Below are positions 265 through 20,117 of a stretch of DNA of 37,780 nt, piece after piece. Every line of letters begins with the position of its first letter. Position 1 is the stretch's first letter. Under the pieces are notes generated by a model, which saw only the letters and a program-made list of their open reading frames with translations, made no database searches and was not told where the DNA came from. Origin of the DNA: an uncultured archaeon (lineage in GTDB: Archaea; Aenigmatarchaeota; Aenigmatarchaeia; QMZP01; JAFGSV01); contig CAZSYZ010000002.1 in the NCBI GenBank assembly GCA_964611445.1, positions 1 through 37,780 on the forward strand. The letters are read 5' to 3'. A program made the translations under genes and the position numbers.

Positions 265-1158
265 TCATATGACCCCCCTCACGATTTCACAGATTATGTC
301 GCTCGCCATGTCAGGGTACCACTGGCTCAGGAAGATGGACACTTCGGTCTGAATGATTTTTGTATCTCCTGACAGGTTCTTAAGGCCATGGGATTTGTCG
401 CCGGTGAATACCTGTCTTATGGTAACTTTAGGAAATACTTTTTTCATATAATTTTCAATGCCCGGGAGTATGCCGTCAACGGATTTTGCGCCGACTATTT
501 TCATGTGGGTATTCAGGTCGTATGTGAATTCCTTCTCCACCTTGCCTTTGGGCGCGCGCCTGACAAACTCAATAGATCTCTTTTCATTGTGAACCATGTA
601 ATCCGTGAAGTCTTTTTTTATCTTGCCGAAGAAAGCGGCATATTTCCTGTTTACCTTCTCGACAGATGATTTCAGGACATTCTCATCAATCCCGGATGAA
701 AATATGTCAATCAAGCTCTTGCATGTCTTGGGCGTGACGTACATCGTGTGAATCAAGACAGCGGTATCACTCTTACCGACTTCTCTCCAGAAAGATCTGT
801 ATAACTTCAGCCTCTGCCTGTGATCATCCTCATCTTCGGCAACCCATGCGTATTGGCGCTTGTATTTGTAATAGGCCTCCTGGTCAATTCTGCCGCTTTT
901 GAGGATGCTGTTCATCCTGAAAGAATCTTTCTGTGAGGGAGGCGCGCGGTTGAAATCCACACCGAAGTCCCTTATCCTGCTGGCGTTGGAGACTATCGCT
1001 TTTCCTCCAATCTTATTGCAGCACAGCCCGGCAATGACATCAGTCTTGTCGTCCCTTGAATCTGAGAACTTGAAGCCTGGTCCGGCATGCGGTGCTACCC
1101 AGGCGGGTCCGTCTCCTCCATCAAATACACTGAAGCCCGGAAAGAATTTAACCCTCAT
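265..1158 (-). CDS. Hypothetical protein with a weak resemblance to the N-formylglutamate amidohydrolase motif set (PHAG .. DxxTD .. SRxxxxGVDFNR).
   Basis: A 297-aa ORF that is visibly less GC-rich than its paralog at 1..247. The family call rests on motifs only. Confidence 0.6.
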   Translation of the reverse strand: MRVKFFPGFSVFDGGDGPAWVAPHAGPGFKFSDSRDDKTDVIAGLCCNKIGGKAIVSNASRIRDFGVDFNRAPPSQKDSFRMNSILKSGRIDQEAYYKYKRQYAWVAEDEDDHRQRLKLYRSFWREVGKSDTAVLIHTMYVTPKTCKSLIDIFSSGIDENVLKSSVEKVNRKYAAFFGKIKKDFTDYMVHNEKRSIEFVRRAPKGKVEKEFTYDLNTHMKIVGAKSVDGILPGIENYMKKVFPKVTIRQVFTGDKSHGLKNLSGDTKIIQTEVSIFLSQWYPDMASDIICEIVRGVI

Positions 1159-1209
1159 AAAAGTATATTGGTCCGGATTCTATTTGTTTTTAACTGTCTG
1201 ATGCGGCAT

Positions 1210-2055
1210 TCACTTCTTTTTCTGCTTCTCGACTACTTCCCTCGCCATCCTGGTGTTCGGGATCAGGACGACCTTTCCGTTCACCTTGAGCTTCGTCACG
1301 AGCTGGTCCACCTCTTCGACGATGCCCGTATACCCGGCGACCTTTATCCTGTCGCCCGCCCTGAAGTTGCCCTTCACCTGAAGCCCCGCGGTTATTTCGG
1401 GTATGATGTCCTTTATCCCGAAGGCCGTTATGATTATTATGGTCACAAGCAGCGCCGAGAGCAGTATCGCGAGTGCCGCGGTCTCGATGCCCAGCAGCGC
1501 CAGCGACATTATGATGACCACGAGCCCGACGCTGTACCTAACGAGGCCGCCCACGAACCTGCCCAGGCCTTCCCCGCCGAGCAGCTTCCCGCTGGCCTCC
1601 TCGAAGACCTTCCCGAAGAAGTCGGCTATTATGAAGCCGACCACCATGAGCAGGATGGCCCCTATGAACCTCGGGACGAATATGGCGACCTGGTTGAAGA
1701 GGTCGGCCACGCCGGACAGGCCAAGCGTCTGGAGTATGAACGTGAAGAACAGTATGTATATGAGCCATTTGACAAGGTCCGCTATGAGCTCCACTATGCT
1801 TCCCTTGTATCCCGTTATCCTGAGCACGCCCTCGGCCCACGACTTGTCGGTCAGGTTCTTGAGGCCCACGATCCTGAGGAGCCTTCTGGTAAGTGACTTC
1901 CCGACCTTCCCGGCTATGTACGCCACCGCGAGGATGAGCACTATCTCGAGCATTATCCTGATGTTCGGAAGTATGTAATCGGGTATGATCCTTGCCGAAA
2001 AATTCCCCATCCACGTCCACAGCGGCGCGAAGAATGCGTTCAGGTCCATGCTCAT
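1210..2055 (-). CDS. Small-conductance mechanosensitive channel (MscS family).
   Basis: Several N-terminal TM helices, then a C-terminal beta-domain motif GDRIKVAGYTGIVEEVDQLVTKLKVNGKVVLIPNTRM typical of MscS. Confidence 0.8.
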   Translation of the reverse strand: MSMDLNAFFAPLWTWMGNFSARIIPDYILPNIRIMLEIVLILAVAYIAGKVGKSLTRRLLRIVGLKNLTDKSWAEGVLRITGYKGSIVELIADLVKWLIYILFFTFILQTLGLSGVADLFNQVAIFVPRFIGAILLMVVGFIIADFFGKVFEEASGKLLGGEGLGRFVGGLVRYSVGLVVIIMSLALLGIETAALAILLSALLVTIIIITAFGIKDIIPEITAGLQVKGNFRAGDRIKVAGYTGIVEEVDQLVTKLKVNGKVVLIPNTRMAREVVEKQKKK

Positions 2056-2082
2056 ATTTTGCCTCCGGTTTATAAAAATGCG

Positions 2083-2994
2083 CTACTTTCCCCTAAGGAC
2101 GTCCTTCATCACGGATTTCGCGTCCTCGAAGAACTTCACAAGCATGGGCTTCTCCTGATGTCGGCGGTAGTTTTCGTGCATGCACTCGATGGTCTTGCGC
2201 GCTATGTTGACCTTCGTCACGCTGCTCGCTGCCTGGAGTTCCGGATTGAGCTCTATGTTCACGACCTTCGGCTCGCCCTTGAGCGACATGTCGACCCTCA
2301 CTATCTGCGTGTCTATGGCCGCAGCCGCCTTCAGCGCCAGCTGTTTCGCCTCTACGCTGAGATTGTGCGCCTTCAGCTTTCCCGGCGAGAATATGACATC
2401 CTGCTCCTTCGTGCTTTTTTTCACTGAGGCTATGACGTCCGGGCTGGCCACGTAAGCGGAGACGAGGTCCCTCACCCGGTCCTCGATGAGGACGGGCTGC
2501 TCGAGCGACCCCAGGGCCTCGATTATGCTCTTGGCCTCGGTCCTGCTCTTCACGGTCACGCCCGTCTTCTGCGAGGGGACCCTCAGCACCACGGGGAATT
2601 CCACGGTCTCGAGGATGCTGGTCGCCGCCCTCACGGACCTCGCCAGGTGGAGGTGGAGCGTGTCCACGTCCCTCTTCCGCAGCACCGTGAGCAGGAAGAA
2701 CCTTTCGGAGGCGAGAAGGAACGCTATCGGAGGCACGGGCATGAACGTCTTCGATGGGAAGAGCGAAAGGAGCTGGTAGGCGTAGGAGTGGTACTTCCTG
2801 GGGACCCTCGGCAGTATGGCGTCGAACTTTAGCAGGTCCGAGTTCCTGTAGCTTATGCTGAAGTCGGAATTGAGCCCGACGCCTATGCTCTCAATGGGAA
2901 CGAAGAACACGGAGCCGAAACGCTTCTTGGCCTCTTCGAGCAGCTTCAGGTTGCTTCCGGTCTTTTCGTGGCCGAGTATGCAAAGACTCATCAA
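2083..2994 (-). CDS. RimK-like ATP-grasp paralog, apparently degenerate.
   Basis: A 303-aa ORF colinear with the adjacent RimK-type ligase in length and layout (N-terminal pre-ATP-grasp, central and C-terminal lobes). It does not have the clean ligase motifs of its neighbour. Confidence 0.65.
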   Translation of the reverse strand: MMSLCILGHEKTGSNLKLLEEAKKRFGSVFFVPIESIGVGLNSDFSISYRNSDLLKFDAILPRVPRKYHSYAYQLLSLFPSKTFMPVPPIAFLLASERFFLLTVLRKRDVDTLHLHLARSVRAATSILETVEFPVVLRVPSQKTGVTVKSRTEAKSIIEALGSLEQPVLIEDRVRDLVSAYVASPDVIASVKKSTKEQDVIFSPGKLKAHNLSVEAKQLALKAAAAIDTQIVRVDMSLKGEPKVVNIELNPELQAASSVTKVNIARKTIECMHENYRRHQEKPMLVKFFEDAKSVMKDVLRGK

Positions 2995-3066
2995 ATCACC
3001 GGTGCCTAATATATGCTCGGCACAGTGTTTAAAAAGATTTGCGCGTTTTGGCTTAGAAACCGTTAC

Positions 3067-3948
3067 CTATCTCCTCGTCTCTCCCCTGATGTAGTCCATT
3101 ACGCGCTGCGCCACGTTTATGTTCGTGGCCTTCTCTATGCCCTGGAGGCCGGGGTTTATGTTGACTTCGATCACGTATGCCTTCCCCTTGCTCTCGACCA
3201 TGTCTATCGCGCATATCCTGCTGTCTATGGCCCTGGCGGCCTCAATTGCTATTTCCCTCATCTCCGGATCCACTTTGAAGTCGACCCCCCTACCGCCGAG
3301 GTGGATGTTGGCCTTCTTGCTGTCCTTCCCCGCAATCCTCTTGAACGACGCTATGACCTCGTCGCCGGCAACGAATGCCCTGATGTCCTCGCCGGGATTG
3401 GGCAGGTACTCCTCGAGCAGCACCTCCTGCCTCAGGCTCTTCATGGCGTGTATGGTGGCCTTTGCGGCGTCCCTGCTCTCCATTATCATCACCCCCTCGC
3501 CACCAAAACCGGACAAGAGCTTCATTATTATGGGAAGCTTCTGCTTGTCAACGATTTTGTTTGCCGTTTCCTTCGAGCCCGTTATCCAGGTCTCGGGCAC
3601 AGGGACCCCCCTCTTGGTGAGCTCCATGAGCGTGAGAAACTTATTGTGGGCGACCAGGATTGTCGTGGCGGGATAAGGCTTATTCACACCGGATTCGTCA
3701 AGGAACCTCAGTATCGGATATCCTATGCTTGCCCTCTTCGAGTCTATCCTTGTCAGTATGTAATCGAAATCCTCAAGGTTCTTTTTGCCGTACTTGGCGG
3801 AGGCCTTCTTCCCCACGGCCAGGACCACGTCCTTTAGGGGGATGTATTCGACCTTCTTGAACTCTCTCCTGGCCTCCTCGAGAAGCCTGCGCGTCGAGTG
3901 CCCCGCGAATTCGGGGGTCGGTCCCATGATGGCAAATTTCATCGGCAT
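3067..3948 (-). CDS. RimK-family alpha-L-glutamate ligase (ATP-grasp).
   Basis: Contains KLLSGFGGEGVMIMES, DIRAFVAGDEVIASFKR and ICAIDMVESKGKAYVIEVNINPGLQGIEKATNINVA, which are typical RimK/LysX/CofF-type ATP-grasp blocks. Confidence 0.85.
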   Translation of the reverse strand: MPMKFAIMGPTPEFAGHSTRRLLEEARREFKKVEYIPLKDVVLAVGKKASAKYGKKNLEDFDYILTRIDSKRASIGYPILRFLDESGVNKPYPATTILVAHNKFLTLMELTKRGVPVPETWITGSKETANKIVDKQKLPIIMKLLSGFGGEGVMIMESRDAAKATIHAMKSLRQEVLLEEYLPNPGEDIRAFVAGDEVIASFKRIAGKDSKKANIHLGGRGVDFKVDPEMREIAIEAARAIDSRICAIDMVESKGKAYVIEVNINPGLQGIEKATNINVAQRVMDYIRGETRR

Positions 3949-3985
3949 CAGCTGATTCTTTATTGACAGGGCTACTTAAAAGCGG

Positions 3986-4381
3986 CTATTTGTATTCGGA
4001 AAGCATGTTCTTTCCCTTCGCGACCCGCCTGAAGAGCTCGCTGTTCTTTTCGGCGTCCACGAGGAAATGCCCTGCCAGTATGTTCCTCCCCACCAGGACG
4101 GGGAATGCCATGTTGCTCCTGTCGGCCACGTTGACCTCGGTGTTGAACTTCTTTCCGCCGAGTACCACGGTGGCGTGAAGCACGGCCCTTCTGGTCCCGG
4201 TGTCCTTTGAGGCGCTCTTTATCTTCGTGACCCTCTTCACGGGGCCTATGCCCGCCTCTGCGGCAAGCGTTATGTCGACCGAGGTCAGCTTTGCTCCGGT
4301 GTCGACGAGCCCGAGCGCCTCGGCCTCGCCGCTGCTTCCCACTATCTTCACCTTCTCGATGATTCCAAGAACTTTCTTCAT
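3986..4381 (-). CDS. Retropepsin-like aspartic protease of the RimK-associated family (PF05618-type, RimB-like).
   Basis: A 131-aa ORF with the LVDTGAKLTSV active-site-like DTGA motif, lying immediately upstream of the rimK-like genes in the same orientation. Confidence 0.7.
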   Translation of the reverse strand: MKKVLGIIEKVKIVGSSGEAEALGLVDTGAKLTSVDITLAAEAGIGPVKRVTKIKSASKDTGTRRAVLHATVVLGGKKFNTEVNVADRSNMAFPVLVGRNILAGHFLVDAEKNSELFRRVAKGKNMLSEYK

Positions 4382-4414
4382 GCTTTATTTTAAACTGCAT
4401 TCTATTTTAAGATT

Positions 4415-5983
4415 ATGGACGATTTCGTGGAGCACCGCCTCATAAAGCCCGGGACGCTGCAGGCTAGGCTTTACCAGCAGCAGATACTGGGGCGCGCGGT
4501 GAACGAGAACCTGCTCGTGGTCCTGCCGACAGGGCTCGGCAAGACCCCGATAGCCGTGATGCTCGCCGTGCACAGGCTGGAAAAGATGCCCGAGGGAAAG
4601 ATAATGGTGCTTGCGCCCACGAAGCCGCTGACGAGCCAGCACTGCCACAGCTTCAAAACCTTTCTCAATGTCGACGAATCCAGGTTCCAGGTGGTCACCG
4701 GGGAGATGAAGCCAGCCGAAAGGCGCGGCATATACGACCGCAAGGACATCATATTCGCGACCCCCCAGACCATCAGGAACGATTTGGAGAAGGACATCAT
4801 AGACTTAAGGCAGTTCTCCCTGCTGGTTTTCGACGAGGCCCACCACGCCATAGGAGGCTACGCCTACCCGTACATAGCAAGGAAGTACATGGAGCAGGGC
4901 AGGAACCCGCGCATACTGGCGCTGAGCGCGTCCCCCGGGGCCACCCACGAGAAGATAAGCGAGATATGCGCGAACCTCGGGGTGAAGGCCGTTGACATAA
5001 GGACCGAGAAGGACAGGGACTTGAAGCCCTACGTCCAGGACAAGGACGTCATGCAGGTGAAGGTCAGCCTCCCGCCTTCGTTCATGTCGATAAAAATGCT
5101 CATGGAGGATGTATACACCAGGAAACTGGGCCACCTGAGGAAGTTCGGCTTCACCAAGCCCGCGAGGCTTGTGAACAAGCGCGACCTGCTAGCGCTTCAG
5201 GGGGACTTCATGTCCCGGCTGCGCTCCGGGAACAGGTCGTCGTTCGCGGCCGTTTCCATAGTCACCCAGTGCATAAAGCTGGAGCACGCGATGGGCCTCC
5301 TTGAGACGCAGGGCATAAGGCCGCTGATGGAATACTGGGAGAAGATGGCGAAGAACAAGACCAAGGCTGACAAGATAATATCGAACGACGCGAAGATAAA
5401 GAAGGCCATGAAGCTCACGCGCGAGCTTTCGGAGAGGGGCTCTAGGCATCCCAAGATATCGAAGCTCTGCTCAGTCGTGGACGCGGAGCTGAACAGGAAC
5501 CCCGGGGCGAGGATAATAGTGTTCGCCAACTACAGGACGAGCGTCGGCGACATCGTGGATTCGCTGGGGAAGGTCGCCGGCGCGAGGCCCGTGCGATTCG
5601 TCGGCCAGAAGGAGGGCGTCACCCAGAAGCAGCAGATTGAGACCATAAGGAAGTTCCGCGAGGGGGAGCACAACGTACTCGTCGCGACGGCCGTGGGGGA
5701 GGAGGGCCTGGACATCCCGAGCGCCAACCTCGCGATATTCTACGAGCCGGTCCCGAGCCCGCTCAGGTCCATACAGCGCAGGGGCAGGGTGGGCCGCGCG
5801 GACATAGGCAGGGTTGTGCTCCTCATAACCGAGGGCACGCGCGACGAGGGCTATTACTGGACCTCCTACCACAAGGAGAAGCGCATGAAGAGCATCCTGA
5901 GAGGCATGAAGGAGAGCGGGGAAGAGGCCGAGGGCGCGGAAGAAAAGAGAAAGGGCCCGCTGACGCTCGGGGACTTCTATTGA
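4415..5983 (+). CDS. Hef/FANCM-like SF2 helicase (COG1111 type) with no C-terminal XPF nuclease domain.
   Basis: Contains LPTGLGKT (Walker A), FDEAHH (DEAH box), SASPG and QRRGRVGR. It ends in a short acidic tail, ...GEEAEGAEEKRKGPLTLGDFY. Confidence 0.9.
   Translation: MDDFVEHRLIKPGTLQARLYQQQILGRAVNENLLVVLPTGLGKTPIAVMLAVHRLEKMPEGKIMVLAPTKPLTSQHCHSFKTFLNVDESRFQVVTGEMKPAERRGIYDRKDIIFATPQTIRNDLEKDIIDLRQFSLLVFDEAHHAIGGYAYPYIARKYMEQGRNPRILALSASPGATHEKISEICANLGVKAVDIRTEKDRDLKPYVQDKDVMQVKVSLPPSFMSIKMLMEDVYTRKLGHLRKFGFTKPARLVNKRDLLALQGDFMSRLRSGNRSSFAAVSIVTQCIKLEHAMGLLETQGIRPLMEYWEKMAKNKTKADKIISNDAKIKKAMKLTRELSERGSRHPKISKLCSVVDAELNRNPGARIIVFANYRTSVGDIVDSLGKVAGARPVRFVGQKEGVTQKQQIETIRKFREGEHNVLVATAVGEEGLDIPSANLAIFYEPVPSPLRSIQRRGRVGRADIGRVVLLITEGTRDEGYYWTSYHKEKRMKSILRGMKESGEEAEGAEEKRKGPLTLGDFY
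5847..5983. repeat. Helicase 3'-end repeat, copy 1. This is the in-gene copy, with variant tail ..gaagaaaagagaaaggg..ttctattga.
   Basis: It aligns base for base with 8792..8928 (same 137-bp length), and its last 99 bp align with 7306..7404. Confidence 0.9.
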
Positions 5984-6047
5984 CAGTAGAAATAAGTTTC
6001 TATTTACAATAGAAAGATTTAAAAACAAGCAGGTATTATAATTAATA

Positions 6048-7283
6048 GTGATAAGAAAAGATAAGCTCAGTGAGATTATTGAAAACCAAAGACGCTGGAT
6101 AACTGAAATTGACAGGGGAACCGAAAGGGAATATCTGGAAGAGGTCAGATTGACAGAAGACTTCGCTCTCGTCATTTCCGGAGTAAGGAGATGCGGTAAA
6201 AGCACTTTTCTAAGCCAAATACTGAAAAGCCGGGAAAAGTTTTATTATCTCAATCTCGAGGACCCGAACCTAACGGATTTCGAACTGAAGGATTTCATCA
6301 GGGCAGATGAGATTTTCAAAGAAAAATATGGGAAGAGAGGAGTTTATTTTTTTGACGAAATTCAGAACGTCGGTGAATGGGAAAGGTTCGTAAGACATAT
6401 CGTAGACAGAAAAGAGAAGGTCGTTTTAACAGGCTCAAACGCTTCTCTATTGAGCAGGGAACTTGGAACCAAACTGACGGGAAGGTACACAAGGATAGAA
6501 ATGTACCCCTTTTCTTACAACGAGTTTCTGAGGTTTTTCGGCATGAAGCCGTCGCCTGAATCCTATGGAAAATACCTTATGAAGGGAGGCTTTCCCCAAT
6601 TCCTGAAGAACGAAGACGAATCCATACTGCACGAACTGCTCAATAACATTGTAATGAGGGATGTTGCAATAAGGTTCGGGATAAAGAATACACACACACT
6701 CAAAAGGCTCGCGGTATGGCTTATAAGCAACACAGGAAAGGAGTTTTCTTACAATTCGCTGAAAAAGACCTTCAGCGTAAAATCTGTCCAGAGTGTAATA
6801 GACTATGTTTCTTTTTTTGAGGATGCGTATCTTGTATTCACTCTGCCGAGATTCAGCTACTCGTACAGGACCCAACAGATGAGCCCGAAAAAAATATATT
6901 CAATAGATAACGGGTTTTCCCGTGCAAACTCGGTATCGTTTTCAAAGGATATGGGGAGGATGCTCGAAAACAGCGTCTTTCTGAGCCTCAAAAGGATTTA
7001 CGGAGACGTCTTTTATTTCCAAGAGGAAGAAGAATGTGATTTTGTTGTGAAGGAAAAGAACAAAGTAAGCAGGGCGTTTCAGGTATGTTATGAGATCAAT
7101 GACGACAATGAGAAAAGGGAAATAAACGGCCTGATGGAGGCAATGGACAAATTCAACATTGAAAACGGCCTTATTCTGACGTATAACCAGGACGATGTAG
7201 TTAAAATAGGTGGCAAGAGCATCACGGTAAAGCCTGCCTGGAAATGGCTCACACAGAGAAAACATGCTGAGAAAAGCGAGTGA
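6048..7283 (+). CDS. AAA+ ATPase of the COG1373 type (AAA_14 + DUF4143) with a PD-(D/E)xK-like C-terminal region.
   Basis: Contains GVRRCGKST (Walker A), VYFFDEIQNV (Walker B) and a C-terminal EEEECDFVVKEKNKVSRAFQVCYE. The start codon is GTG. Confidence 0.85.
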   Translation: MIRKDKLSEIIENQRRWITEIDRGTEREYLEEVRLTEDFALVISGVRRCGKSTFLSQILKSREKFYYLNLEDPNLTDFELKDFIRADEIFKEKYGKRGVYFFDEIQNVGEWERFVRHIVDRKEKVVLTGSNASLLSRELGTKLTGRYTRIEMYPFSYNEFLRFFGMKPSPESYGKYLMKGGFPQFLKNEDESILHELLNNIVMRDVAIRFGIKNTHTLKRLAVWLISNTGKEFSYNSLKKTFSVKSVQSVIDYVSFFEDAYLVFTLPRFSYSYRTQQMSPKKIYSIDNGFSRANSVSFSKDMGRMLENSVFLSLKRIYGDVFYFQEEEECDFVVKEKNKVSRAFQVCYEINDDNEKREINGLMEAMDKFNIENGLILTYNQDDVVKIGGKSITVKPAWKWLTQRKHAEKSE

Positions 7284-7305
7284 TGGCAGCCAAAAATCAG
7301 GTCCG

Positions 7306-7404
7306 ATGAAGACCATCCTGAAGGACATGAAGGAGAGCGGGGAAGAGGCCGAGGGCGCGGAAGTGAAAAGGAAGGGCCCGCTGACGCTCGGGGACTTCTG
7401 CTGA
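7306..7404. repeat. Helicase 3'-end repeat, copy 2 (99 bp including a TGA).
   Basis: The sequence atgaagaccatcctgaaggacatgaaggagagcggggaagaggccgagggcgcggaagtgaaaaggaagggcccgctgacgctcggggacttctgctga differs from copy 1 at its left end and in the last ~45 bp. Its tail is identical to the tail of copy 3. Confidence 0.9.
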
Positions 7405-7406
7405 TT

Positions 7407-8723
7407 CTATGGTTTCGGAGCGGGATTGCTCCGGCCGGCTTCCAGCAGCCATTTCCACAGCGGAATGAAAAGTATTTTCATGTTTCCTATAGTTTCTTCC
7501 TTTTCCACATCCATCGTTATAATAGTCCCTTCTTTCAGTCCGTGGAAATTCATGGCTTCCAGCAGTCCTTCAATTTCCCTCTTATAATTTTTCTCGTTCA
7601 GTTCAGTGGTCACCTGAATGGCTCCCGTCACCCTGTCCTTCTCCCTTATAAGGAAATCGCATTCATGCTTTTTCCTGTGATAGAAAACATCAGCTTTCCT
7701 TCTCTTCAACTCTATGAAAACCAGATTCTCCGCCAATTTCCCGACCTCGCCCGAAAATTTGAAACTCACGGCATTGAGAAGGCCGTTGTCGATGCAGTAT
7801 ATCTTTTTGATTGAGCCAAGCTGCTTTGTTAAAGAATAATCGTACTTCATATTCTGGAAAAAGAGATACGCATCCTCAAAATAGGATATAAATTCGATGA
7901 CCGTGTTTTTGCTTATATTGAATCCAAGAGATTTCATCTTATTGGCCAGTTTGCTGTATGAAATTTCATGCGATGCCGATTCAAACAGCAGCTTGGCAAG
8001 AATCTGAAGTTTCTTGATTTCTTTTATGCCATACCTCTCCACAATGTCCTTGAAAATCATGGACTGCAGATAACCCTGCAGAATCGTTTCTTTCGGGACA
8101 TTTTCATTTATCAGGATTGACGGGTAACCTCCTCCGAAGAGATATGAATCGAATGCCTTCTTTATTTTGAACCTTTTTTTGCTGTACGAAATTTCCCTGG
8201 CGTCGCGGGGAATCCCTTTCCAGTCCAGAAATTCCGTGAAGCTCAGGGGGAAGACCTCGGTGTTGAAGATTCTCCCTCTCAGCTTGGTGGATATTTCCCT
8301 GCTCAGCATTTTTGAAGAAGACCCCGTAATAACTATTTTCAGGTTTTTATTCATGTCGTACAACCTTCTGACCCAGACATCCCAATCCCTCACGTTCTGC
8401 AATTCATCCAGAAAGATGTATATCTTCTGTTTTTCGTTCAAATCGGACAATTCGTAAAAGGTATCCAACAGCCTGTCGAGGTCTTCCGCACCAGCCCCGA
8501 GCAGCTTTTCGTCCTCAAAGTTTATATAGAGGACATTGTCCTTTTTCACACCGTCCTTCAGGAGAGACCTTATCTTCTGGAAGCAGAGGTACGTCTTTCC
8601 CGCCCTTCTGGGCCCAGTGACGGTTGATATGAAATCGTGGTCCATGCTTATGCCCGTTTCCCTGTGAAAAACCTCGGGAATCTGGAATTCCTGCCACTGC
8701 ACTATTATTTTCTTGTAATCCAT
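7407..8723 (-). CDS. AAA+ ATPase of the COG1373 type (AAA_14 + DUF4143) with a PD-(D/E)xK-like C-terminal region.
   Basis: Contains GPRRAGKTY (Walker A), IYIFLDELQNV (Walker B) and a C-terminal KHECDFLIREKDRVTGAIQVTTE. It is a paralog of 6048..7283. Confidence 0.85.
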   Translation of the reverse strand: MDYKKIIVQWQEFQIPEVFHRETGISMDHDFISTVTGPRRAGKTYLCFQKIRSLLKDGVKKDNVLYINFEDEKLLGAGAEDLDRLLDTFYELSDLNEKQKIYIFLDELQNVRDWDVWVRRLYDMNKNLKIVITGSSSKMLSREISTKLRGRIFNTEVFPLSFTEFLDWKGIPRDAREISYSKKRFKIKKAFDSYLFGGGYPSILINENVPKETILQGYLQSMIFKDIVERYGIKEIKKLQILAKLLFESASHEISYSKLANKMKSLGFNISKNTVIEFISYFEDAYLFFQNMKYDYSLTKQLGSIKKIYCIDNGLLNAVSFKFSGEVGKLAENLVFIELKRRKADVFYHRKKHECDFLIREKDRVTGAIQVTTELNEKNYKREIEGLLEAMNFHGLKEGTIITMDVEKEETIGNMKILFIPLWKWLLEAGRSNPAPKP

Positions 8724-8791
8724 ACCAATTCACTGAACAAATTATCCATAATTTGTATTATTCACTGAACATATTTATAAATATTACCTTC

Positions 8792-8928
8792 AGGGCCACT
8801 GCTGGAACTCCTACCACAAGGAGAAGCGCATGAAGAGCATCCTGAGAGGCATGAAGGAGAGCGGGGAAGAGGCCGAGGGCGCGGAAGTGAAAAGGAAGGG
8901 CCCGCTGACGCTCGGGGACTTCTGCTGA
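8792..8928. repeat. Helicase 3'-end repeat, copy 3 (137 bp including a TGA).
   Basis: In the helicase frame it encodes ..HCWNSYHKEKRMKSILRGMKESGEEAEGAEVKRKGPLTLGDFC*, against EGYYWTSYHKEKRMKSILRGMKESGEEAEGAEEKRKGPLTLGDFY* in the gene. Confidence 0.9.
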
Positions 8929-8944
8929 CTTCTATAATCGTTTA

Positions 8945-10840
8945 CTACACCGGCGTCTCCACAGGCGCTTTAGCATTGTGGGCTAGTATCCCCTCTGCGA
9001 AATAGTTGTTCGGGCTTGCAAGCTTAAGGTTGTAGACTGTTCCCAGTTCCTCCTTTTGGAACTTGAGCGAAACTATCTTTGACCACTTCACCGAGTCTCC
9101 CTGAGAGACCAGAACATGCTCGCCTTCCTCAAGGTTCTGCACAGGCTCGTATCTTTCCGAGCCGTCTTTCATCGCGTATAGCAGATGGATGCCCGTAACC
9201 CTCGCTTCCTGACCGTCTGCAGTCGTCAGGACATAATACCCGTCATTCGGCACAACTCTGTTCTCTTTGGTGTGGACGAGCAGTTCTTCTACCCGGGATT
9301 CCGTGATTTCCCCGGTTTCGTCGTTGTATGAAATGACGACGTCGCCGGACTCGATGTCCTCTATGCTTTTCAGGCCGCCGTCAGCCATCAAGATTCTCGT
9401 GCCGGGGAGGAAGCACTCAGCGCATGAGCCACCGACACAGATATGGGTCTCCTGGCTGCAGTCGCATATTCCGTCTGGTGGAATATCGCAGTCAAGCCAG
9501 CCTCCACTCAGGCAGTCACATACTCCACCTTCACAGAGCGCACCATACGGACAGCTATTGCTGCATGAACCGCAGTGGTCAGGGTCGGTATGAAGGTCTA
9601 CACATTCCCCCCCACAGCACGCGCCATAGCAGTTGCATATCCCTTGGCAGTTTCTAAATCCAAAGTCGCAGATGCACTGTCCGTTGGAGCAGTGCTGGTT
9701 GGGGCCGCACGTTTTTGTCACTGTCCCTCCGCAATTGTCGTAGAATGTCCCGCACTCAGGCAGGTCTCCCGCTTCGCCGCATAAAAGCACGCCCCTGAGA
9801 TATATGTCACCGCCGCTGGTTATCCATGCAACAGGGTCGCCGTAGGAATTAATCACAAAATTCCCCGAACTGCTGGGAGTTGCAGCCGTGTTTCCATAAA
9901 GGCCGCCCCTCTTATAGACATCGCCGGTTGAGCCGTCAACCCAGAATACAGTGGTCCCGGCAGAATTCTGTATTATGAAATTGCCATTGCCTGAAGGATT
10001 TGAGAACGTTGCCTTGAGCATTCCACCTATCCACATATATCCGTCGCTGCCTATACTCAGCAGGTCACTGCCAGCGCTGTTCTTTAATACGAATTTAGGC
10101 GGCGAGGTCCTCCATACGCCTAAATAGCATCTTATAGTTTCTCCGCTTATCGTCATCTGATATCCGTCAGGCCTGCACGTCCCGCTGTAGACGCAGTCGT
10201 ACTCGCTGTCGCAGCATGCGTCATCACTCGCGCTGCCCGTGCACCCTTCCTCACATTTCCTGTATTTATAATATTCACCCTTATCGTCGCCGCAGCAGGT
10301 AGTAGTTGCCACATCGCCCAAGCTGGAGATGGCCCAGTGCTCTTCAAGAGGATAGTAGCAGTCGCAAGCATCTTCGCTCGTATCTATGTCGGCCACCTCA
10401 GATGGCCAGTATGGTAATACACACCCACCTTTACCGCAGCTGCTTTGCGTGTAGTAGTTCCCTTCATAGCACTGGTCCTCATCGCTGCACGGACCGGATA
10501 CGCAGGCACCGTCGCTGCAGTAAGTGCCGTAATTGCACCTGTGCAGTATCAATTCCAATGGAGAATTAGGTACGCATGCCCCTTCGCATGTTCCGGCCGT
10601 TTCAATGTATGTGCAGATATCGGTGTCGTCGCATACCGTTTCATATGTGCAATCTGCCCAGATATCGTAAACGCAGAGTTCCTGTAAACGGAGGCAGTTC
10701 CAGCACGCGGGATCACCGCAGTCGCTGTCAGTTTTGCATTGAGAATGAACGGGAGCCGGGTAAGCTATCGAATTCGGGAGAAAGACGATTAGGATAAAAA
10801 GAAATGCCGCACATCCCGCAAGAACCCCATAACGCCACAT
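8945..10840 (-). CDS. Secreted cysteine-rich protein with three internal ~35-aa repeats and a C-terminal 147-aa Hint domain (nt 8975..9415).
   Basis: - N-terminal signal/TM segment VLAGCAAFLFILIVFLPNSIA.
- Many CxxC/EGF-like Cys clusters.
- Three repeats: FVLKNSAGSDLL.., FIIQNSAGTTVF.., FVINSYGDPVAW..
- Hint blocks: CFLPGTRILMADGG (A), VTGIH (TxxH, B), VYNLKLASPNNYFAEGILAHN (F/G).
- Only AKAPVETPV follows the terminal Asn.
- The ATG at 10840 overlaps the upstream stop (TGATG). Confidence 0.8.
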   Translation of the reverse strand: MWRYGVLAGCAAFLFILIVFLPNSIAYPAPVHSQCKTDSDCGDPACWNCLRLQELCVYDIWADCTYETVCDDTDICTYIETAGTCEGACVPNSPLELILHRCNYGTYCSDGACVSGPCSDEDQCYEGNYYTQSSCGKGGCVLPYWPSEVADIDTSEDACDCYYPLEEHWAISSLGDVATTTCCGDDKGEYYKYRKCEEGCTGSASDDACCDSEYDCVYSGTCRPDGYQMTISGETIRCYLGVWRTSPPKFVLKNSAGSDLLSIGSDGYMWIGGMLKATFSNPSGNGNFIIQNSAGTTVFWVDGSTGDVYKRGGLYGNTAATPSSSGNFVINSYGDPVAWITSGGDIYLRGVLLCGEAGDLPECGTFYDNCGGTVTKTCGPNQHCSNGQCICDFGFRNCQGICNCYGACCGGECVDLHTDPDHCGSCSNSCPYGALCEGGVCDCLSGGWLDCDIPPDGICDCSQETHICVGGSCAECFLPGTRILMADGGLKSIEDIESGDVVISYNDETGEITESRVEELLVHTKENRVVPNDGYYVLTTADGQEARVTGIHLLYAMKDGSERYEPVQNLEEGEHVLVSQGDSVKWSKIVSLKFQKEELGTVYNLKLASPNNYFAEGILAHNAKAPVETPV

Positions 10841-12021
10841 CAACTCAACCTTATGACTATATTGCTTCCAGGTAATGCATATATGTAGGCTGTATCTAAT
10901 CTGTTGACATTTTCGATATTATTGGTGTTCATGTCGAGGTTCCCGCCCACGATCTCAAGCCTGTCGTCAAGACTTGTCGTTCCTATACCGACCCGCCCCT
11001 GGCCGTCAACCACAAGACGAGTAGTGTATGAACCTCCGCTGTAGCTTCTCACATAGAATGCGCCGCCGGAAGAGTGTGTGATATAATTGCTTGCCCCCCC
11101 GAGATTGCTGGTCCCGTATATTGAGGATTCTATCCTTACACCTACCGCCGAGCCCGAATCAATATGAAGCTTTGCGTCAGGAGATGTTTCTCCTATGCCG
11201 ACCCTGTTGTTTGCCGCATCTATGTACAGCGTGCCCGAGTCTACGTTGAGGTCGCCGTCAAGCGTTATGGAATCGGCCAGCTGCGCACCGTTTATTGAAT
11301 CAGAGACGACCGAAAGCGTCGGAGTCGAGCCCTCTCCCGTTCCGCTACCGCTCAGGAACCCTATTGTCGCCGAGTCCGTTATCGTCGCCACGTAATCCCC
11401 TGTCGTATGCGCCCCAAGGGATATGAGGTCGGTCAATGACGTCGCTCCTGTGCCGCCGCTTGCTATCGGAAGGGTGGCGCTCCTGAGCACTCCGGAGCCA
11501 TCATAATACAAGGCGCCGTTACTGGTTCCCGTGAAGTCATCCACCCTGTCCCCCGCGGCCGGGTAGTATGCAATCTTGTTTGCCGCGCCCGCGTTCACAG
11601 CGCCCTGCCCGCCCCCTATGCAGGCCGTCGCATTGCATATGGTGCCCGTGGCCTGTATGTTGCCCTGGACGTAAACGTTCCCTGAAACGCTGAGCCGCGA
11701 AGTTCCGGGAGTAGCTGTCCCGATGCCGACGTTGCCGCCGGTCGATATGTATATGTCAGGCCCTCCATTCGAATCGCCATACAGCCTGAGGTCATTTAAA
11801 CCCATTATCTGGTCTGCACCAGTTATGTCGGCGTCGTTGAGCGTTAGCCCGTTCGCTCCGTTCACTGTAAGGCTCCCGGGAAACGTCCATGCACCGCCTG
11901 CACCGCCCCCGAAAGTTCCCGGAAGTATCTGGCTGGCGGGATGCGACTGAGCCTGAACGCCTGCGCATGAGAATAGAACCATGACTCCAATGACGGCCAG
12001 AGAGAGGAATATCCGCCTCAT
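10840..12021 (-). CDS. Secreted fibre-like protein (tail-fibre-like GNVGIGT repeats), paralog 1.
   Basis: Signal peptide MRRIFLSLAVIGVMVLFSCAGVQAQS. It has Gly/Thr/Ser/Asn-rich beta-type composition and repeated GGNVGIGTATPG / RVGIGETSPDAKLHI / RVGIGTTSLDDRLEI motifs, as seen in phage tail-fibre-type proteins. Confidence 0.75.
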   Translation of the reverse strand: MRRIFLSLAVIGVMVLFSCAGVQAQSHPASQILPGTFGGGAGGAWTFPGSLTVNGANGLTLNDADITGADQIMGLNDLRLYGDSNGGPDIYISTGGNVGIGTATPGTSRLSVSGNVYVQGNIQATGTICNATACIGGGQGAVNAGAANKIAYYPAAGDRVDDFTGTSNGALYYDGSGVLRSATLPIASGGTGATSLTDLISLGAHTTGDYVATITDSATIGFLSGSGTGEGSTPTLSVVSDSINGAQLADSITLDGDLNVDSGTLYIDAANNRVGIGETSPDAKLHIDSGSAVGVRIESSIYGTSNLGGASNYITHSSGGAFYVRSYSGGSYTTRLVVDGQGRVGIGTTSLDDRLEIVGGNLDMNTNNIENVNRLDTAYIYALPGSNIVIRLS

Positions 12022-12056
12022 TGTTTAATTAATTGCCGGCAGCGAATTAAAAGCTT
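11905..12056. repeat. 152-bp perfect direct repeat, copy A. It covers the promoter, 5' UTR and first 39 codons of fibre paralog 1.
   Basis: I compared it base by base with 14161..14312 and found them identical. Identity drops to clearly diverged homology further into the genes. Confidence 0.9.
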
Positions 12057-12103
12057 ACCGCAGCAGATTGCTCTTGGGAACTGACAAAACGGCACCAGGC
12101 GGT

Positions 12104-12147
12104 TTCTGAAGGATGTCCTGAAGGGGACTTATGCTGATTATGTGGTT
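12104..12147. repeat. Degenerate, internally deleted fourth copy of the helicase 3' end.
   Basis: The sequence tcctgaagg|ggggacttatgctgattatgtggttt matches atcctgaagga....ggggacttctgctgattctatggttt of copy 2. The match continues for several bases past the TGA. Confidence 0.6.
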
Positions 12148-12171
12148 TTTTCAACTGTTCCTAGTTGCAGG

Positions 12172-14277
12172 TTATCCAGAGCCGCAGGTTATCCAGTCTA
12201 TGAAATTCATGCTCGTTCCACAGGTTGCCCTGTACCATTCCCCGTTGGTGGCATCGCCGTCGGAGTCGTACCAGCCGCAGTCTATGTCATAAGCGTAACT
12301 GAAGCTTGCCGAGTGTGAACTGACATGGTTCAGCCCGAACTCGCTGCACCAGGCGGCTCTCGTGTCCCCGTCGGTCTGTTCGTGCCTCATAAGCCGTTCG
12401 GCCTCGGTATGGCCTTCGTAGTTAGGCCTGAAGTAGCCGTCCCATCCTGGCATGGGGCTCGAGGAGAATACGAGTTCCCTTCCTTGGACCACTTGTGGTA
12501 CATTGAAAGTGATACTTCCGTCACTGTTCTCTGTACAACTTTCCCAGATGAGGAATTCATCCCCGTTCCCGGCTTCATCTACCCTAAGCCCGTACTGGTT
12601 TATGAAGCCTCCATAGAGTGGTTGTCCTGAGAATATGCCGCCTTCCGTATAATGGCCCCACACGTCGAAATTGAAGCCCATGAATTTCGGGCACCTCGCA
12701 CGCCTCTTTATCACATTTACGGTGAAGCAGTTCTCTCCGTTCTCATCGCAGTACTCTGTCGCTCCGACCTTCCCGCCGACGTCCAGCATGAGGTCGGAAG
12801 AGCGGCTGGTTGTCCCAATGATAGCATAGCTTCCGGTCCTTAGGTAGTCGGAAATATAGCCCGGCCCGGTCACGTGAATCCCCCAAGGACCAGGACTTCC
12901 TTGGCTTCCTGCCCTTATGCCGCCTGTCACCAAGACGTTTCCCCTAACGTCCAACTTCTGCGTCGGTTGGTCTATCCCTATTCCCACGTTTCCGTTCAGG
13001 CGGTATATGTTGCTGGTTCCATCGTAGAGCGACCAGTAGCTGGTCCCCCCTCCTCCTACGTTATCAAGACAATTACCATAGCCGTCGCATACAGTTCCGC
13101 TGGCTTTTATGTCACCCTGGACGTCAAGCTCCACCCCGCTCGCGGGCGCTTTCCCTATGCCGACGTTCCCGCCATCCCGGACCGTAAACACATTCGTGAT
13201 GCCGTCGTAAAGATTGAAAATGTCCCCAGTCCCGTCCTGTACCACTCTCAGCTTTCCGCTACCGTACAATGATCCTACGCCGACGTTCCCTCCACCGGGT
13301 TGCAGGATGATGTCAGCTGTTGGGTTGTTGATGAGGAAATCGTCGTCAGCGTTGGTATACAACTGGCCGACTTCTGCCGACTGCGACCATACCCCTATCT
13401 CCCTGTAGTTCGAACCGTCGTCGAGATAGAAGTCGACATCATTTATGTATGTGTTGCTGTCACCGAAATCGACATGCGTGTAATCGTTGAAGCCGATCCG
13501 GAAATTGACAGGATACATGTAGAAGTTGTCTATGGAGTTCTGGACGTAGACGTTCCCTGTGCCGCTTCCCGACTGAACGAAGTTCAGATACCCGTCGCTT
13601 GAAGAATGGTATAATCTCACCCCGTGGCTGTTGTCACCGTCCTGGAAGTATAACGAATTGCTTCCCACCCTCAGGTCTCCTGTCATGGTGTCGCCGTCTA
13701 TGTCGACCCAGTCATCAGATACGACGAGATTCTCGCCGCTGCATCCTATGTGGTCATCAGCCGTGCCGGTCACATCCGAACAATCGAAAGAAATGGTGCC
13801 GGTAGTGGTGATGGGACCGCCTCCTATCCCCACACCAGTATCAATCTGGGTAACGGTACCGGTCCCGGTCGTGCTTATACACAGCCCGCCGCCATCGCAT
13901 ACCTCCCCAGTCGCCTGTATGTTGCCCTGGACGTACACATTCCCCGAAACATTGAACCGTGCCGTTCCCGGAACCGCCGTCCCGATACCCACATTACCAC
14001 CCGTCGTTATGTATATGTCAGGCCCCCCCGTAGAATCCCCGTACAGCCTGAGGTCATTAAAGCCCATTATCTGGTCGGCACCCGTTATGTCGGCGTCGTC
14101 GTCAAGCGTTATGCCGTTCACCCTAAGCCCCCCGAGGAACCTCCATGAATCGACAGATGTGCCCCCGAAAGTTCCCGGAAGTATCTGGCTGGCGGGATGC
14201 GACTGAGCCTGAACGCCTGCGCATGAGAATAGAACCATGACTCCAATGACGGCCAGAGAGAGGAATATCCGCCTCAT
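12172..14277 (-). CDS. Secreted fibre-like protein, paralog 2 (701 aa), with a distinct C-terminal globular region.
   Basis: Its first 39 aa are identical to paralog 1, followed by about 85 aa of diverged homology. It has GGNVGIGTAVPG, GGNVGVGSLYGSGKL, GGNVGIGKAPASGVEL and NGNVGIGIDQPTQKLDV repeats. The unique C-terminal ~200 aa are rich in W, Y and C. Confidence 0.75.
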   Translation of the reverse strand: MRRIFLSLAVIGVMVLFSCAGVQAQSHPASQILPGTFGGTSVDSWRFLGGLRVNGITLDDDADITGADQIMGFNDLRLYGDSTGGPDIYITTGGNVGIGTAVPGTARFNVSGNVYVQGNIQATGEVCDGGGLCISTTGTGTVTQIDTGVGIGGGPITTTGTISFDCSDVTGTADDHIGCSGENLVVSDDWVDIDGDTMTGDLRVGSNSLYFQDGDNSHGVRLYHSSSDGYLNFVQSGSGTGNVYVQNSIDNFYMYPVNFRIGFNDYTHVDFGDSNTYINDVDFYLDDGSNYREIGVWSQSAEVGQLYTNADDDFLINNPTADIILQPGGGNVGVGSLYGSGKLRVVQDGTGDIFNLYDGITNVFTVRDGGNVGIGKAPASGVELDVQGDIKASGTVCDGYGNCLDNVGGGGTSYWSLYDGTSNIYRLNGNVGIGIDQPTQKLDVRGNVLVTGGIRAGSQGSPGPWGIHVTGPGYISDYLRTGSYAIIGTTSRSSDLMLDVGGKVGATEYCDENGENCFTVNVIKRRARCPKFMGFNFDVWGHYTEGGIFSGQPLYGGFINQYGLRVDEAGNGDEFLIWESCTENSDGSITFNVPQVVQGRELVFSSSPMPGWDGYFRPNYEGHTEAERLMRHEQTDGDTRAAWCSEFGLNHVSSHSASFSYAYDIDCGWYDSDGDATNGEWYRATCGTSMNFIDWITCGSG

Positions 14278-14312
14278 TGTTTAATTAATTGCCGGCAGCG
14301 AATTAAAAGCTT
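14161..14312. repeat. 152-bp perfect direct repeat, copy B (promoter and signal-peptide block of fibre paralog 2).
   Basis: Identical to 11905..12056. On the minus strand it contains CTTTTAATT about 25-33 nt upstream of the ATG, a TATA-like box that would give a short or absent leader. Confidence 0.9.
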
Positions 14313-15029
14313 TCATTCATTCATGTTTCTGACTTCGCACTTCTTGAAGTTTCCGCTTATTTTCTCTCTCAGTCCTGCGAAGAACGCGTCAGGATACGTG
14401 GACACTTTTGCGAACTCCGGGTCTATCATGCTGTCCCTAGGAATGAACTTCTGGAGCACGTACTTACTCGAGCCCTTCAGCTGCCTCGCTATCTCCAGGA
14501 TGTCCTCCTCGCTGTGCATTCCCGGCACGACCGTGGTCCTGAACTCGTAATCGATGCCGCTGCCCCTCAGCATCTCCACGCTTTTCAGGACATTCCCGAA
14601 GAGCCTTTTGTCGCTTGTCGCGGCGGCCTTCGTATACTTCTCCCTTTTCAGCGACGTCTTGATGTCCATGGCCACGAAATCCACGAGCTTGTCCCCTATG
14701 AGGGCTTTCAGCATCACCGGATTCGTGCCGTTTGTCTCCAGTCCTGCAAGAAGCCCGAGCTTTTTGACCTTGCCGTAGAAACCAGGCAGGTCCATGTGCA
14801 TGGTCGGCTCGCCTCCCGTGACTATCACCGCCTGGTAGAGCTTCCTCCGCGCTTTCAGGAAATCCAGCACCTCTTCCTCGGTTATCCTTTCCAGCTTGTC
14901 CGGCCTGAGCACAAGGTCGCGGTTGTAGCAGAAAGGGCACCTGAAGTTGCACCCGCCGGTGAAGAGCACCGTGGAGACCTTTCCGGGATACTCCACGAGC
15001 GAAGTCTTCTGCCACCCTCTGAATTCCAT
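14313..15029 (-). CDS. nrdG: Anaerobic ribonucleotide reductase activating protein (radical SAM).
   Basis: Contains the GGCNFRCPFCYN CxxxCxxC cluster, is about 235 aa, and is the last gene of the nrd operon. The start could be the ATG at 15029 or the GTG at 15038. Confidence 0.85.
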   Translation of the reverse strand: MEFRGWQKTSLVEYPGKVSTVLFTGGCNFRCPFCYNRDLVLRPDKLERITEEEVLDFLKARRKLYQAVIVTGGEPTMHMDLPGFYGKVKKLGLLAGLETNGTNPVMLKALIGDKLVDFVAMDIKTSLKREKYTKAAATSDKRLFGNVLKSVEMLRGSGIDYEFRTTVVPGMHSEEDILEIARQLKGSSKYVLQKFIPRDSMIDPEFAKVSTYPDAFFAGLREKISGNFKKCEVRNMNE

Positions 15030-15060
15030 GCGTATCACGACCCAATTTTAACCGAGAGAA

Positions 15061-20107: not shown

Positions 20108-20117
20108 CACACCTTCC

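Follow-up and report, generated by a model that had tools for sequence, protein, structure and literature searches.

Restriction-modification genes unaccompanied by mobility genes are known to enter bacterial genomes by insertion with long target duplication, in which the target duplications are long and of variable length (Nobusato et al. 2000; Furuta, Abe & Kobayashi 2010, PMC2853133). The survey of 2010 held bacterial cases only, and no archaeal case survived its screen (PMC2853133). Here we describe a related arrangement in a whole contig of 37,780 nt, referred to below as the window, from a metagenome bin of Aenigmarchaeota (DPANN archaea); the lineage was taken from the source names of the homologues of its helicase. 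On this contig, single-gene cassettes, each consisting of a promoter and one AAA_14/DUF4143 gene of the PDC-S01 type, entered the 3' end of a Hef-like helicase gene repeatedly. A block of two genes for apparent surface proteins entered earlier by the same way, and after every entry the insert had a direct copy of the helicase tail on either side.

Other known systems have features in common with this locus. For elements integrating into tRNA genes, and for e14 and phage 21 in the icd gene of E. coli, the target gene is restored by a 3' end borne on the element; the displaced original 3' end forms a direct pseudo-copy at the far end, and tandem integration is possible. Such elements, however, carry an integrase of their own and are many kb long, whereas the cassettes of the window hold one gene each, not of a recombinase family, and no integrase was found in the larger open reading frames (ORFs) of the contig. 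Integron arrays, especially chromosomal super-integrons with their near-identical attC repeats, are similar in their single-gene units of about 1.3-1.5 kb, in repeats of 50-140 nt that are highly similar within an array, and in apparent growth beside a fixed anchor. They differ from the window, which has no IntI or attI, and in which the repeats are the 3' end of a host gene, the cassettes have promoters of their own and lie in both orientations, and the repeat is specific to the lineage. The integron reading was ruled out, as neither an IntI domain among the larger ORFs of the contig nor an attC-like fold was detected. Small elements without a recombinase of their own, such as pdif modules and Xer-dependent elements (IMEX), are moved by a host recombinase; their sites are 28-bp dif-like sequences, as against gene tails of 40-140 nt in the window.

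PDC-S01 is a widespread, unvalidated candidate defence system enriched in Archaea (PMC12988326). In a 2026 survey of 7,747 archaeal genomes, it ranked as the fourth commonest defence system across prokaryotes (PMC12988326). The literature on DUF4143, COG1373 and PDC-S01 gave nothing on mobility, flanking repeats or arrays, with incomplete coverage, and an earlier description is possible.

The helicase, the copies of its tail, the inserted units and the far edge of the variable region are located in the window as follows.

4415-5983, plus strand: Hef-like (ERCC4-related, helicase-only) DEAD/DEAH helicase gene (Pfam DEAD, Helicase_C, ResIII and RNA_helicase_helical)
5847-5983, plus strand: tail copy 1, the functional helicase 3' end with its stop codon (repeat search and blastn self-comparison)
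5984-7305, plus strand: cassette 1, GC fraction 0.41, with an operator-like palindrome, a promoter region, the DUF1 gene and a 22-nt spacer
6048-7283, plus strand: DUF1, AAA_14 and DUF4143 protein of 411 aa (Pfam 4.7e-37 and 3.6e-19)
7306-7404, plus strand: tail copy 2, 99 nt, homology reaching about 7415 (repeat search and blastn)
7405-8791, minus strand: cassette 2, GC fraction 0.425, with the DUF2 gene and a promoter region at 8724-8791
7407-8723, minus strand: DUF2, second AAA_14 and DUF4143/PDC-S01 protein, 438 aa
8792-8928, plus strand: tail copy 3, 137 nt (repeat search and blastn)
8929-12103, minus strand: block 3, GC fraction 0.54, two genes (Pfam Hint, Intein_splicing and PT-HINT; synteny with locus L001)
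12104-12148, plus strand: tail copy 4, decayed and internally deleted, plus about 11 nt of conserved downstream sequence
14313-15038, minus strand: radical-SAM gene, marking the far edge of a variable region of about 8.3 kb

In the blastn self-comparison, copies 1 and 3 (5847-5978 and 8792-8923) were 93.9% identical over 132 nt (E 2e-55), copies 1 and 2 (5885-5978 and 7306-7399) 91.5% over 94 nt, and copies 2 and 3 (7306-7410 and 8830-8935) 95.3% over 106 nt, the likeness of the last pair extending about 6 nt beyond the stop codon. All copies lie in direct orientation. Copies 2 and 3 have one and the same tail, which differs from the functional gene end at positions -40, -39, -36, -33, -4 and -3, copy 1 having private variants in its last 40 nt (...AEEKRK...DFY and stop). 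Copy 2 departs from copies 1 and 3 at its left end only (-91, -82, -81 and -79). Copy 3 reads as a non-functional pseudo-tail, with GHCWNS... where the conserved helicase has GYYWTS.... Copy 4 taken alone is a weak match: its core GGGGACTTATGCTGATTATGTGGTTT (12123-12148) agrees at 23 of 26 positions with copy 2 and its 11 downstream nucleotides, a match found in none of 100 shuffles. At the same syntenic position in a relative, L001, a tail remnant lies between two fibre-like genes (16664-16694; 21 nt, 95% identical to the second copy of that locus), and copy 4 is therefore considered to be real. The first-pass annotation had described the recurrence of the last 137 bp of the gene at 8792-8928 and of the last 99 bp at 7306-7404, a degenerate fourth copy at about 12104-12147, the direct orientation throughout, the tail common to copies 2 and 3, the different left end of copy 2, and the greatest decay in the copy farthest from the gene. 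The repeat search and formal alignment, copy 4 included, upheld each of these within the window.

The tail copies have a GC fraction of 0.58-0.61 and the helicase gene one of 0.60, against which both DUF4143 intervals are AT-rich, as had been noted at first sight. Single-strand folding of the tail copies was no better than that of shuffled sequences (z -0.38, +0.29 and -0.44). Homologues of the window helicase are named ERCC4-related helicase or FANCM, the sources being Aenigmarchaeota metagenome-assembled genomes; for the helicase, DUF1 and DUF2, no exact protein match was on record. Simple tandem duplication was ruled out, for the two DUF genes are 40% identical and lie on opposite strands, yet the repeats are 92-95% identical.

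Each of the two cassettes comprises one gene and its own upstream region. Cassette 1 opens with a palindromic, operator-like motif TAGAAATAAGTTTCTATTTACAATAGAAAG at 5987-6016 (hairpin fold z = -2.3), and in the promoter region of cassette 2 there are two direct copies of TTCACTGAACA together with a TATA-like TTTATAAATA. The stop codon and last two codons of DUF2 lie inside the approximately 11 nt common to the sequences downstream of the tail copies. Cassettes of DUF1 type open with the near-perfect palindrome TTTCTATTGACAATAGAAA, single in the window (5987-6016) and doubled in the related locus L121 (3244-3285); a remnant of the doubled form is found right after the helicase stop in L001 (11584-11630), which is without a DUF1 gene. 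Other cassette types have conserved palindromes of their own, such as AGTACAAT...ATTGTACT ahead of the ATG in L073 and L104. These palindromes probably act in autoregulation, as operators to which the helical region of the protein, possibly a winged helix, would bind. Scans for promoter and terminator consensus were uninformative, as the models are bacterial and the match counts were at chance level.

In both proteins, the AAA_14 and DUF4143 Pfam scores exceed the gathering thresholds. Both also match the PADLOC profile of PDC-S01 (PDLC04787) almost end to end, DUF1 at residues 23-404 (6.2e-112) and DUF2 at residues 26-428 (8.1e-116), and are by this profile candidate defence genes. DUF2 is 40% identical to DUF1, 84% to the cassette gene of L001 and 33% to that of L003. 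The closest homologues of DUF1 are 86% and 76% identical, the remainder being at about 60-66% in Nano-, Pace- and Woesearchaeota; the closest GTDB relatives of DUF2, from Woesearchaeota, are 72% and 69% identical. In the AlphaFold2 model of DUF1 (predicted local distance difference test score 84), an AAA+ domain and a helical region precede an alpha/beta domain at the C terminus. Its top Foldseek match was Orc1/Cdc6 in complex with origin DNA (2qby_B), and lower matches were to other AAA+ and STAND ATPases; the AAA+ part dominated the matches, and the C-terminal nuclease-like domain was not resolved in this search. A sequence search of the PDB gave no relative with a solved structure. The Pfam family DUF4143 has been placed in the PD-(D/E)XK nuclease superfamily (PMC3424549). 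Walker A, Walker B and E-x-D-F motifs are conserved in the DUF4143 cargo proteins, while the (D/E)xK lysine is not obvious in the proteins of the window, which have QVT and QVC where L003 has ELK.

The same site was then compared among relatives of the helicase that are about 70-80% identical, in which synteny is kept upstream (RimK, RimB-like) and differs downstream. Labels such as L001, L002, L003 and L121 denote fetched loci in other genomes, and P0003 and P0010 denote helicases. The states observed were as follows.

L002: empty site, the radical-SAM gene lying 49 nt after the helicase; no tail repeats
L001: a single DUF4143 cassette, 84% identical to DUF2, followed by the Hint and fibre genes and these by radical SAM; tail present as three copies or remnants
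L003: a single cassette, its DUF4143 gene only 33% identical to DUF2; tail repeats of 82 nt, 96% identical
L121: L003-type cassette proximal and DUF1-type cassette (76% identical to DUF1) distal; three tail copies
L036, L037 and L040: unrelated genes and no cassette; no tail repeats
P0010 lineage: no cassette in the 225-493 nt at hand

Occupied sites always have tail copies and empty sites have none. The radical-SAM gene that adjoins the helicase in L002 lies 8.3 kb downstream in the window, although the two helicases are only 78% identical; the loci that show the difference between empty and occupied states have helicases about 78-79% identical. At least three DUF4143 lineages, 33-40% identical to one another, were found at this one site, in both orientations and in varying order. 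The repeats measure 137 and 99 nt in the window, 82 nt in L003 and about 100 nt in L001 and L121, and unoccupied relatives have one tail. Between DUF2 and the cassette gene of L001 the identity is 84%, compared with 73-80% for the flanking genes. These observations indicate that the helicase 3' end is a recurrent insertion site, a landing pad for recombination.

The search of relatives for empty and partly occupied sites, with L002 empty and L001 and L003 holding one cassette, and the finding of cassette relatives beside helicase tails in L001, L003 and L121 bear out the proposal of the first-pass annotation that the intervals are separately acquired insertions, as empty, one-cassette and two-cassette states all exist. 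Its core idea, repeated integration of tail-bearing DNA, stood, but two other parts did not. That the newest insertion lies nearest the gene is not a rule, since the DUF1-type cassette is distal in L121 and a DUF1-type promoter remnant lies right after the helicase stop in L001. Two of the three stacked cassettes it described are single-gene DUF4143 cassettes; the third interval, with its two genes for secreted proteins, is not of the same type. Block 3 is instead older cargo of a different kind (two apparent surface or secreted proteins), common to the window and L001, and contains no DUF4143 cassette.

The absence of a visible recombinase, also noted at first, was borne out for the larger ORFs: no integrase or transposase Pfam domain was found among the 29 larger ORFs of the contig, cassette ORFs included, the smaller ORFs being unscanned. 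The precomputed Pfam listings likewise gave no recombinase beside the helicase in L001, L003 and L121. A tRNA or other RNA gene as the attachment site was ruled out, the region being without a tRNA. A metagenome scan with the helicase returned mostly distant relatives (<50% identical), none of which had the helicase-tail repeat.

Six contigs from six samples (L123-L128) carry an identical helicase, P0010; all break 225-493 nt downstream and have the same sequence until the break. The shared breaks suggest a strain-variable or repetitive region beyond. A DDE transposase gene is present upstream of the helicase neighbourhood in L123 and L126 and absent in L124.

The distribution of differences among the tail copies is informative as to their origin. 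Between copies 1 and 3, all 10 mismatches lie at -131 to -121 and at -40 to -3, leaving a clean core of 80 nt. A clean run of about this length was obtained in only about 0.1% of random mismatch placements (P about 0.001). Scattered differences are expected if the repeats arose by fresh duplication followed by decay, and the observed clustering at the edges argues against that course. The private changes of copy 2, all in its left 25 nt, are in frame and conservative (MKSILRG to MKTILKD), and three of the four changed bases are common to the functional helicase of another lineage (P0003 in L129, MKTILKG). In L121, the left part of the third copy is like the tails of L001 type (AAGTCCATCCT.AGGGGCATGAA) and unlike the tail of L121 itself. 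The DUF1-type cassette is trailed by a tail copy of about 100 nt and a homologous spacer in both the window and L121. Because the copies are mosaic and carry the alleles of other lineages, the tail piece appears to travel with the cassette, with the crossover inside the tail homology. Each cassette would then have brought its own version of the tail, as the first-pass annotation had supposed, and edge-clustered differences and foreign alleles in copy 2 and in the third copy of L121 are in agreement with this.

The junctions are constant in one respect and variable in others. Every copy retains the last 20-30 nt or so of the gene and about 10-15 nt downstream (T[TA][AC]TATG...TTT), including the shortest ones, namely the second copy of L121 (42 nt), the third copy of L001 (about 30 nt) and copy 4 of the window. 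DUF4143 genes on the minus strand terminate within this shared downstream stretch, and the DUF2, L003 and L121 genes have about 55 nt in common (WKWLLEAxRSxPxxKx) despite an overall identity of 33%. The putative core, however, varies among genomes (GACTTCTGCTGA, GATTATTGCTGA and GATTTCGGCTGA), as do the points at which identity switches. The left boundary of the repeat is at -137 in the window and at about -100 in L001, though the adjoining cassette end ATACCTTCAG is identical.

The closest precedent for this locus is insertion with long target duplication. Common to both are a small defence unit of nuclease type without a mobility gene, direct repeats of more than 30 bp and up to several hundred, a repeat that is single at the related empty site and often overlies the 3' end of a gene, and an insert with a GC content unlike that of the genome. 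At the helicase, an empty site is available (L002), the direct repeats exceed 30 bp and are single there, and no mobile element was found in the 29 larger ORFs. The cargo is not a restriction-modification system, each DUF4143 cassette having a single ATPase-nuclease (PDC-S01) gene in place of a restriction-modification pair and no methyltransferase; the case is therefore a variant and not a member as originally defined. It extends the precedent in cargo, in hosts (DPANN archaea and bacteria of the Candidate Phyla Radiation, CPR), in the stacking that reuses the same repeat, and in the donor alleles found in some repeat copies. These alleles point, for at least some of the events, to homologous integration of a tail-bearing donor and not to de novo duplication.

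For the generality of the pattern, 80 loci of DUF4143 relatives from GTDB species genomes were surveyed, the upstream and downstream flanks of each gene being compared at a cut-off of at least 35 bits for direct repeats, with other ORFs of at least 250 aa at the same loci as controls. Direct repeats flanked 26 of the 78 testable DUF4143 ORFs (33%) but only 3 of 126 other ORFs (2.4%), and no inverted flank matches of at least 35 bits were found in this survey. The repeats measured 21-406 nt (median 52) with a period of about 1.5 kb. The downstream repeat began at a median of 40 nt from the stop codon, and in several cases the stop was inside the repeat. Most of the positive loci were from DPANN archaea; two came from CPR bacteria and a few from elsewhere. 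Several loci were stacked in the manner of the window, among them the following.

L073 (Pacearchaeota), 833-6424: four direct copies of 55-139 nt, 91-95% identical, delimiting three DUF4143 cassettes, one of them disrupted
L045 (CPR bacterium): four repeat copies and three cassettes

Similar stacking was observed in L091 and L101, and multiple direct repeats in L087, L094, L098 and L114. The repeated sequence of L073 comes from the 3' end of an Lhr-like helicase gene in convergent orientation; that the end of a DNA-repair helicase gene is again the target may or may not be a coincidence. Repeat-flanked cassettes are thus a general pattern of this DUF4143/PDC-S01 clade, in many microbes with tiny genomes, a point that the first-pass annotation had not made. 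A viral or plasmid carrier was rejected: IMG/VR contains no copy of the tail sequence, and the best homologue of a cassette in it has 41% identity.

A footprint of the same kind was seen with other cargo in L006. At 5606-6700, a gene for a multi-pass membrane protein of 292 aa lies between the stop of a distantly related helicase (47% identical) and the next gene, which from its first residues looks like one for an ERCC4-type nuclease. The membrane-protein gene is flanked by a 35-nt direct repeat (5611-5645 and 6655-6689, 94% identical), whose second copy forms the 5' start of that next gene. The footprint of a single gene flanked by a duplicated gene end is seen here too, with non-DUF4143 cargo. 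In L105 (Pacearchaeota), a DUF4143 cassette is flanked by a 138-nt repeat of 99% identity (3568-3705 and 5252-5389), the second copy of which reaches the contig end; unlike the helicase tails, this repeat has a strong single-strand fold (z = -5.0).

With moderate confidence, we favour a process in which cassette DNA from related genomes, bearing a helicase tail, is integrated through homology and without an integrase, the tails being reused so that the cassettes stack. The incoming DNA would be a fragment of a related genome, the cassette already lying beside a helicase tail, and would arrive as a circle (tail piece and cassette) or as a linear tail-cassette-tail fragment. A circle, as in the Campbell-type integration proposed by the first-pass annotation, would not be required, because a linear fragment with two crossovers in a single resident tail should give the same product. 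The crossover would be made by the homologous recombination machinery of the host within the tail homology of about 40-140 nt, and the ATPase-nuclease cargo may promote breaks. The helicase would keep an intact, chimeric 3' end, while the displaced or donor tail would be left on the far side as a pseudo-copy. Each tail copy could then serve again as a landing site, leading to stacking, with an outcome of the form of insertion with long target duplication. We infer both the form of the incoming DNA and the role of host recombination from these traces. A foreign origin is supported by the GC content of the cassettes (0.41-0.43, compared with 0.58-0.61 for the tails) and by the closest homologues in other DPANN phyla. 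Selection on the cargo as candidate anti-virus genes probably makes of this site a small, fast-turnover island of defence and surface-protein genes.

Several points weigh against this reading. The comparison of empty with occupied sites covered pairs related by no more than 95%, in which the exact junctions of the moment of insertion are not seen, and neither circular nor linear intermediates were observed. The recombinase scan covered one contig of 37.8 kb, and a recombinase acting in trans from elsewhere is possible. Retention of the last 20-30 nt or so of the gene in all copies, with one junction about 0-15 nt from the stop, would fit a site-specific core. In many genomes the 3' junction of the cassette is at the end of the DUF4143 ORF (conserved WKWLL), which random fragment ends do not explain. 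About 6 of the 26 positives in the GTDB survey may be partial tandem paralogues, the repeat overlapping the 3' coding end of the gene, and the rate is otherwise about 26%. On IMG/VR contigs, flanking repeats were found at 0 of 64 distant DUF4143 loci, so the pattern depends on lineage or context, and its generality is limited to the GTDB clade sampled.

Unlikely, yet in line with several of these features, is the view that the DUF4143 gene is a self-mobilising selfish gene. Its protein would make widely staggered cuts at a gene end, where its own gene would be pasted or copied in; the fill-in would yield a long target duplication of variable length, a route hypothesised for restriction-modification genes by Kobayashi and colleagues. 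Such a gene would account for the enrichment of flanking repeats (33% of DUF4143 genes against 2.4% of neighbouring ORFs) and for the minimal form of the cassettes, with a palindromic-operator promoter, an ORF ending in WKWLL and a 3' junction at a median of +40 nt from the stop. The very variable repeat lengths (21-406 nt), the presence of both orientations at the helicase site of the window, the intact Walker A/B and conserved E-x-D-F motifs and the Pfam placement in the PD-(D/E)XK superfamily (PMC3424549) point the same way. Repeat copies with foreign helicase alleles, however, are not simple local duplications, and the same footprint occurs with non-nuclease cargo, in block 3 and in the membrane-protein gene of L006. 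The lack of flanking repeats at all 64 IMG/VR homologue loci also speaks against it, as does the (D/E)xK lysine, which is not obvious in the window proteins, whose nuclease role is a prediction. Tentatively, the DUF4143/PDC-S01 clade could instead, or also, be a one-gene mobile element, in which an Orc1/Cdc6-like ATPase with a nuclease-like domain would bind its own palindromic operator and drive insertion beside the 3' ends of host genes, giving long variable duplications and integron-like arrays. Arrays without integrase or transposase may in that case be formed especially in DPANN archaea and CPR bacteria.

Site-specific integration in trans is, in our judgement, rather improbable. The enzyme, either Xer of the host or an integrase of the tyrosine or serine type, would be encoded elsewhere in the genome or by a helper element and would recognise a core at the extreme 3' end of the helicase gene, and the attP of each cassette would carry a replacement tail, as in tRNA-gene or icd elements. 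All copies, even the shortest, do keep the last 20-30 nt and about 10-15 nt downstream, one junction is always near the stop codon, and the gene is always restored, all of which such an enzyme would explain. It has to be set against the lack of a recombinase in the larger ORFs of the contig and in the Pfam listings beside the L001, L003 and L121 helicases, a putative core that differs between genomes, and tail copies without an attC-like fold. Elsewhere the repeats are unrelated and of very different lengths, so that a different integrase specificity would be needed for each lineage.

There is a small chance that an old local rearrangement was maintained by concerted evolution, gene conversion keeping the pseudo-tails similar, in which case the genomes would differ by deletions and not by gains. 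The identity of DUF2 to the L001 gene (84%) is only slightly over that of the flanking genes (73-80%), block 3 and the remnant copy are common to the window and L001, and L001 appears to have lost a DUF1-type cassette; conversion tracts would also yield edge-biased divergence. Yet one ancestral arrangement does not give rise to three unrelated DUF4143 lineages in both orientations and varied order. The GC content of the cassettes is still foreign, alleles of other lineages are present in copy 2 and in the third copy of L121, and the left repeat boundary differs (-137 in the window, about -100 in L001) beside the same cassette end. Stitching of strain variants into false repeats by the metagenome assembler is very improbable, even though the window is a metagenome contig and the breaks of six related-helicase contigs 225-493 nt downstream mark the neighbourhood as hard to assemble, because the copies differ by single-nucleotide polymorphisms and in length and flank intact, different genes, and because the same architecture recurs in four independent assemblies (window, L001, L003 and L121) from different samples and pipelines.

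If homology-driven integration of tail-bearing cassettes is correct, archaea and bacteria with tiny genomes are able to gain and stack accessory genes by way of a conserved gene 3' end, with no need for an integrase or transposase. PDC-S01 would be recast as a gene that moves horizontally in the manner of a cassette and may be selfish, and insertion with long target duplication, known for restriction-modification genes in bacteria, would be extended to archaea and to new cargo. Long direct repeats that recur every 1.3-1.6 kb or so beside the end of a conserved gene could serve as a signature by which variable islands of defence and surface-protein genes are located in metagenome bins. Such repeats may also be the reason why contigs break recurrently at these sites.

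The remaining genes of the variable region are as follows.

8945-10843, minus strand: Cys-rich protein with a C-terminal Hint/intein-like domain (Pfam), in block 3
10840-12021, minus strand: fibre-like protein of 393 aa, its N-terminus resembling a signal peptide, in block 3
12172-14277, minus strand: second fibre-like gene, 701 aa, within the variable region absent from L002

The two fibre-like proteins share the identical N-terminus MRRIFLSLAVIGVMVLFSCAGVQAQ, and tail copy 4 sits between their genes. Their 5' regions, upstream sequence included, are 86% identical over 406 nt (11651-12056 and 13913-14312), a stretch that corresponds to the first 370 nt or so and the promoter of each gene. This repeat may be a product of the same insertion process, or of plain paralogous duplication.

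In a plasmid collection, DUF4143 homologues were found on 216 records; none was listed for E. coli, and the main genera were Acinetobacter (166 records) and Moraxella. Acinetobacter plasmids are known for small recombinase-less modules bounded by Xer (pdif) sites, and the commonness of DUF4143 homologues on them (166 records) is taken as a lead only.

Outside the variable region of the window, the sole Rfam match on the contig is tRNA-like (28451-28513; 34.8 bits, gathering score 29) and was not called by ARAGORN. At 15746-20110, the ORF of the anaerobic ribonucleotide reductase NrdD is 1454 aa long, compared with 998+49 aa in L002. Domains for intein splicing and of the LAGLIDADG homing-endonuclease type are found within this ORF and coincide with AT-rich dips at about 16400-17600 and 18400-19600.

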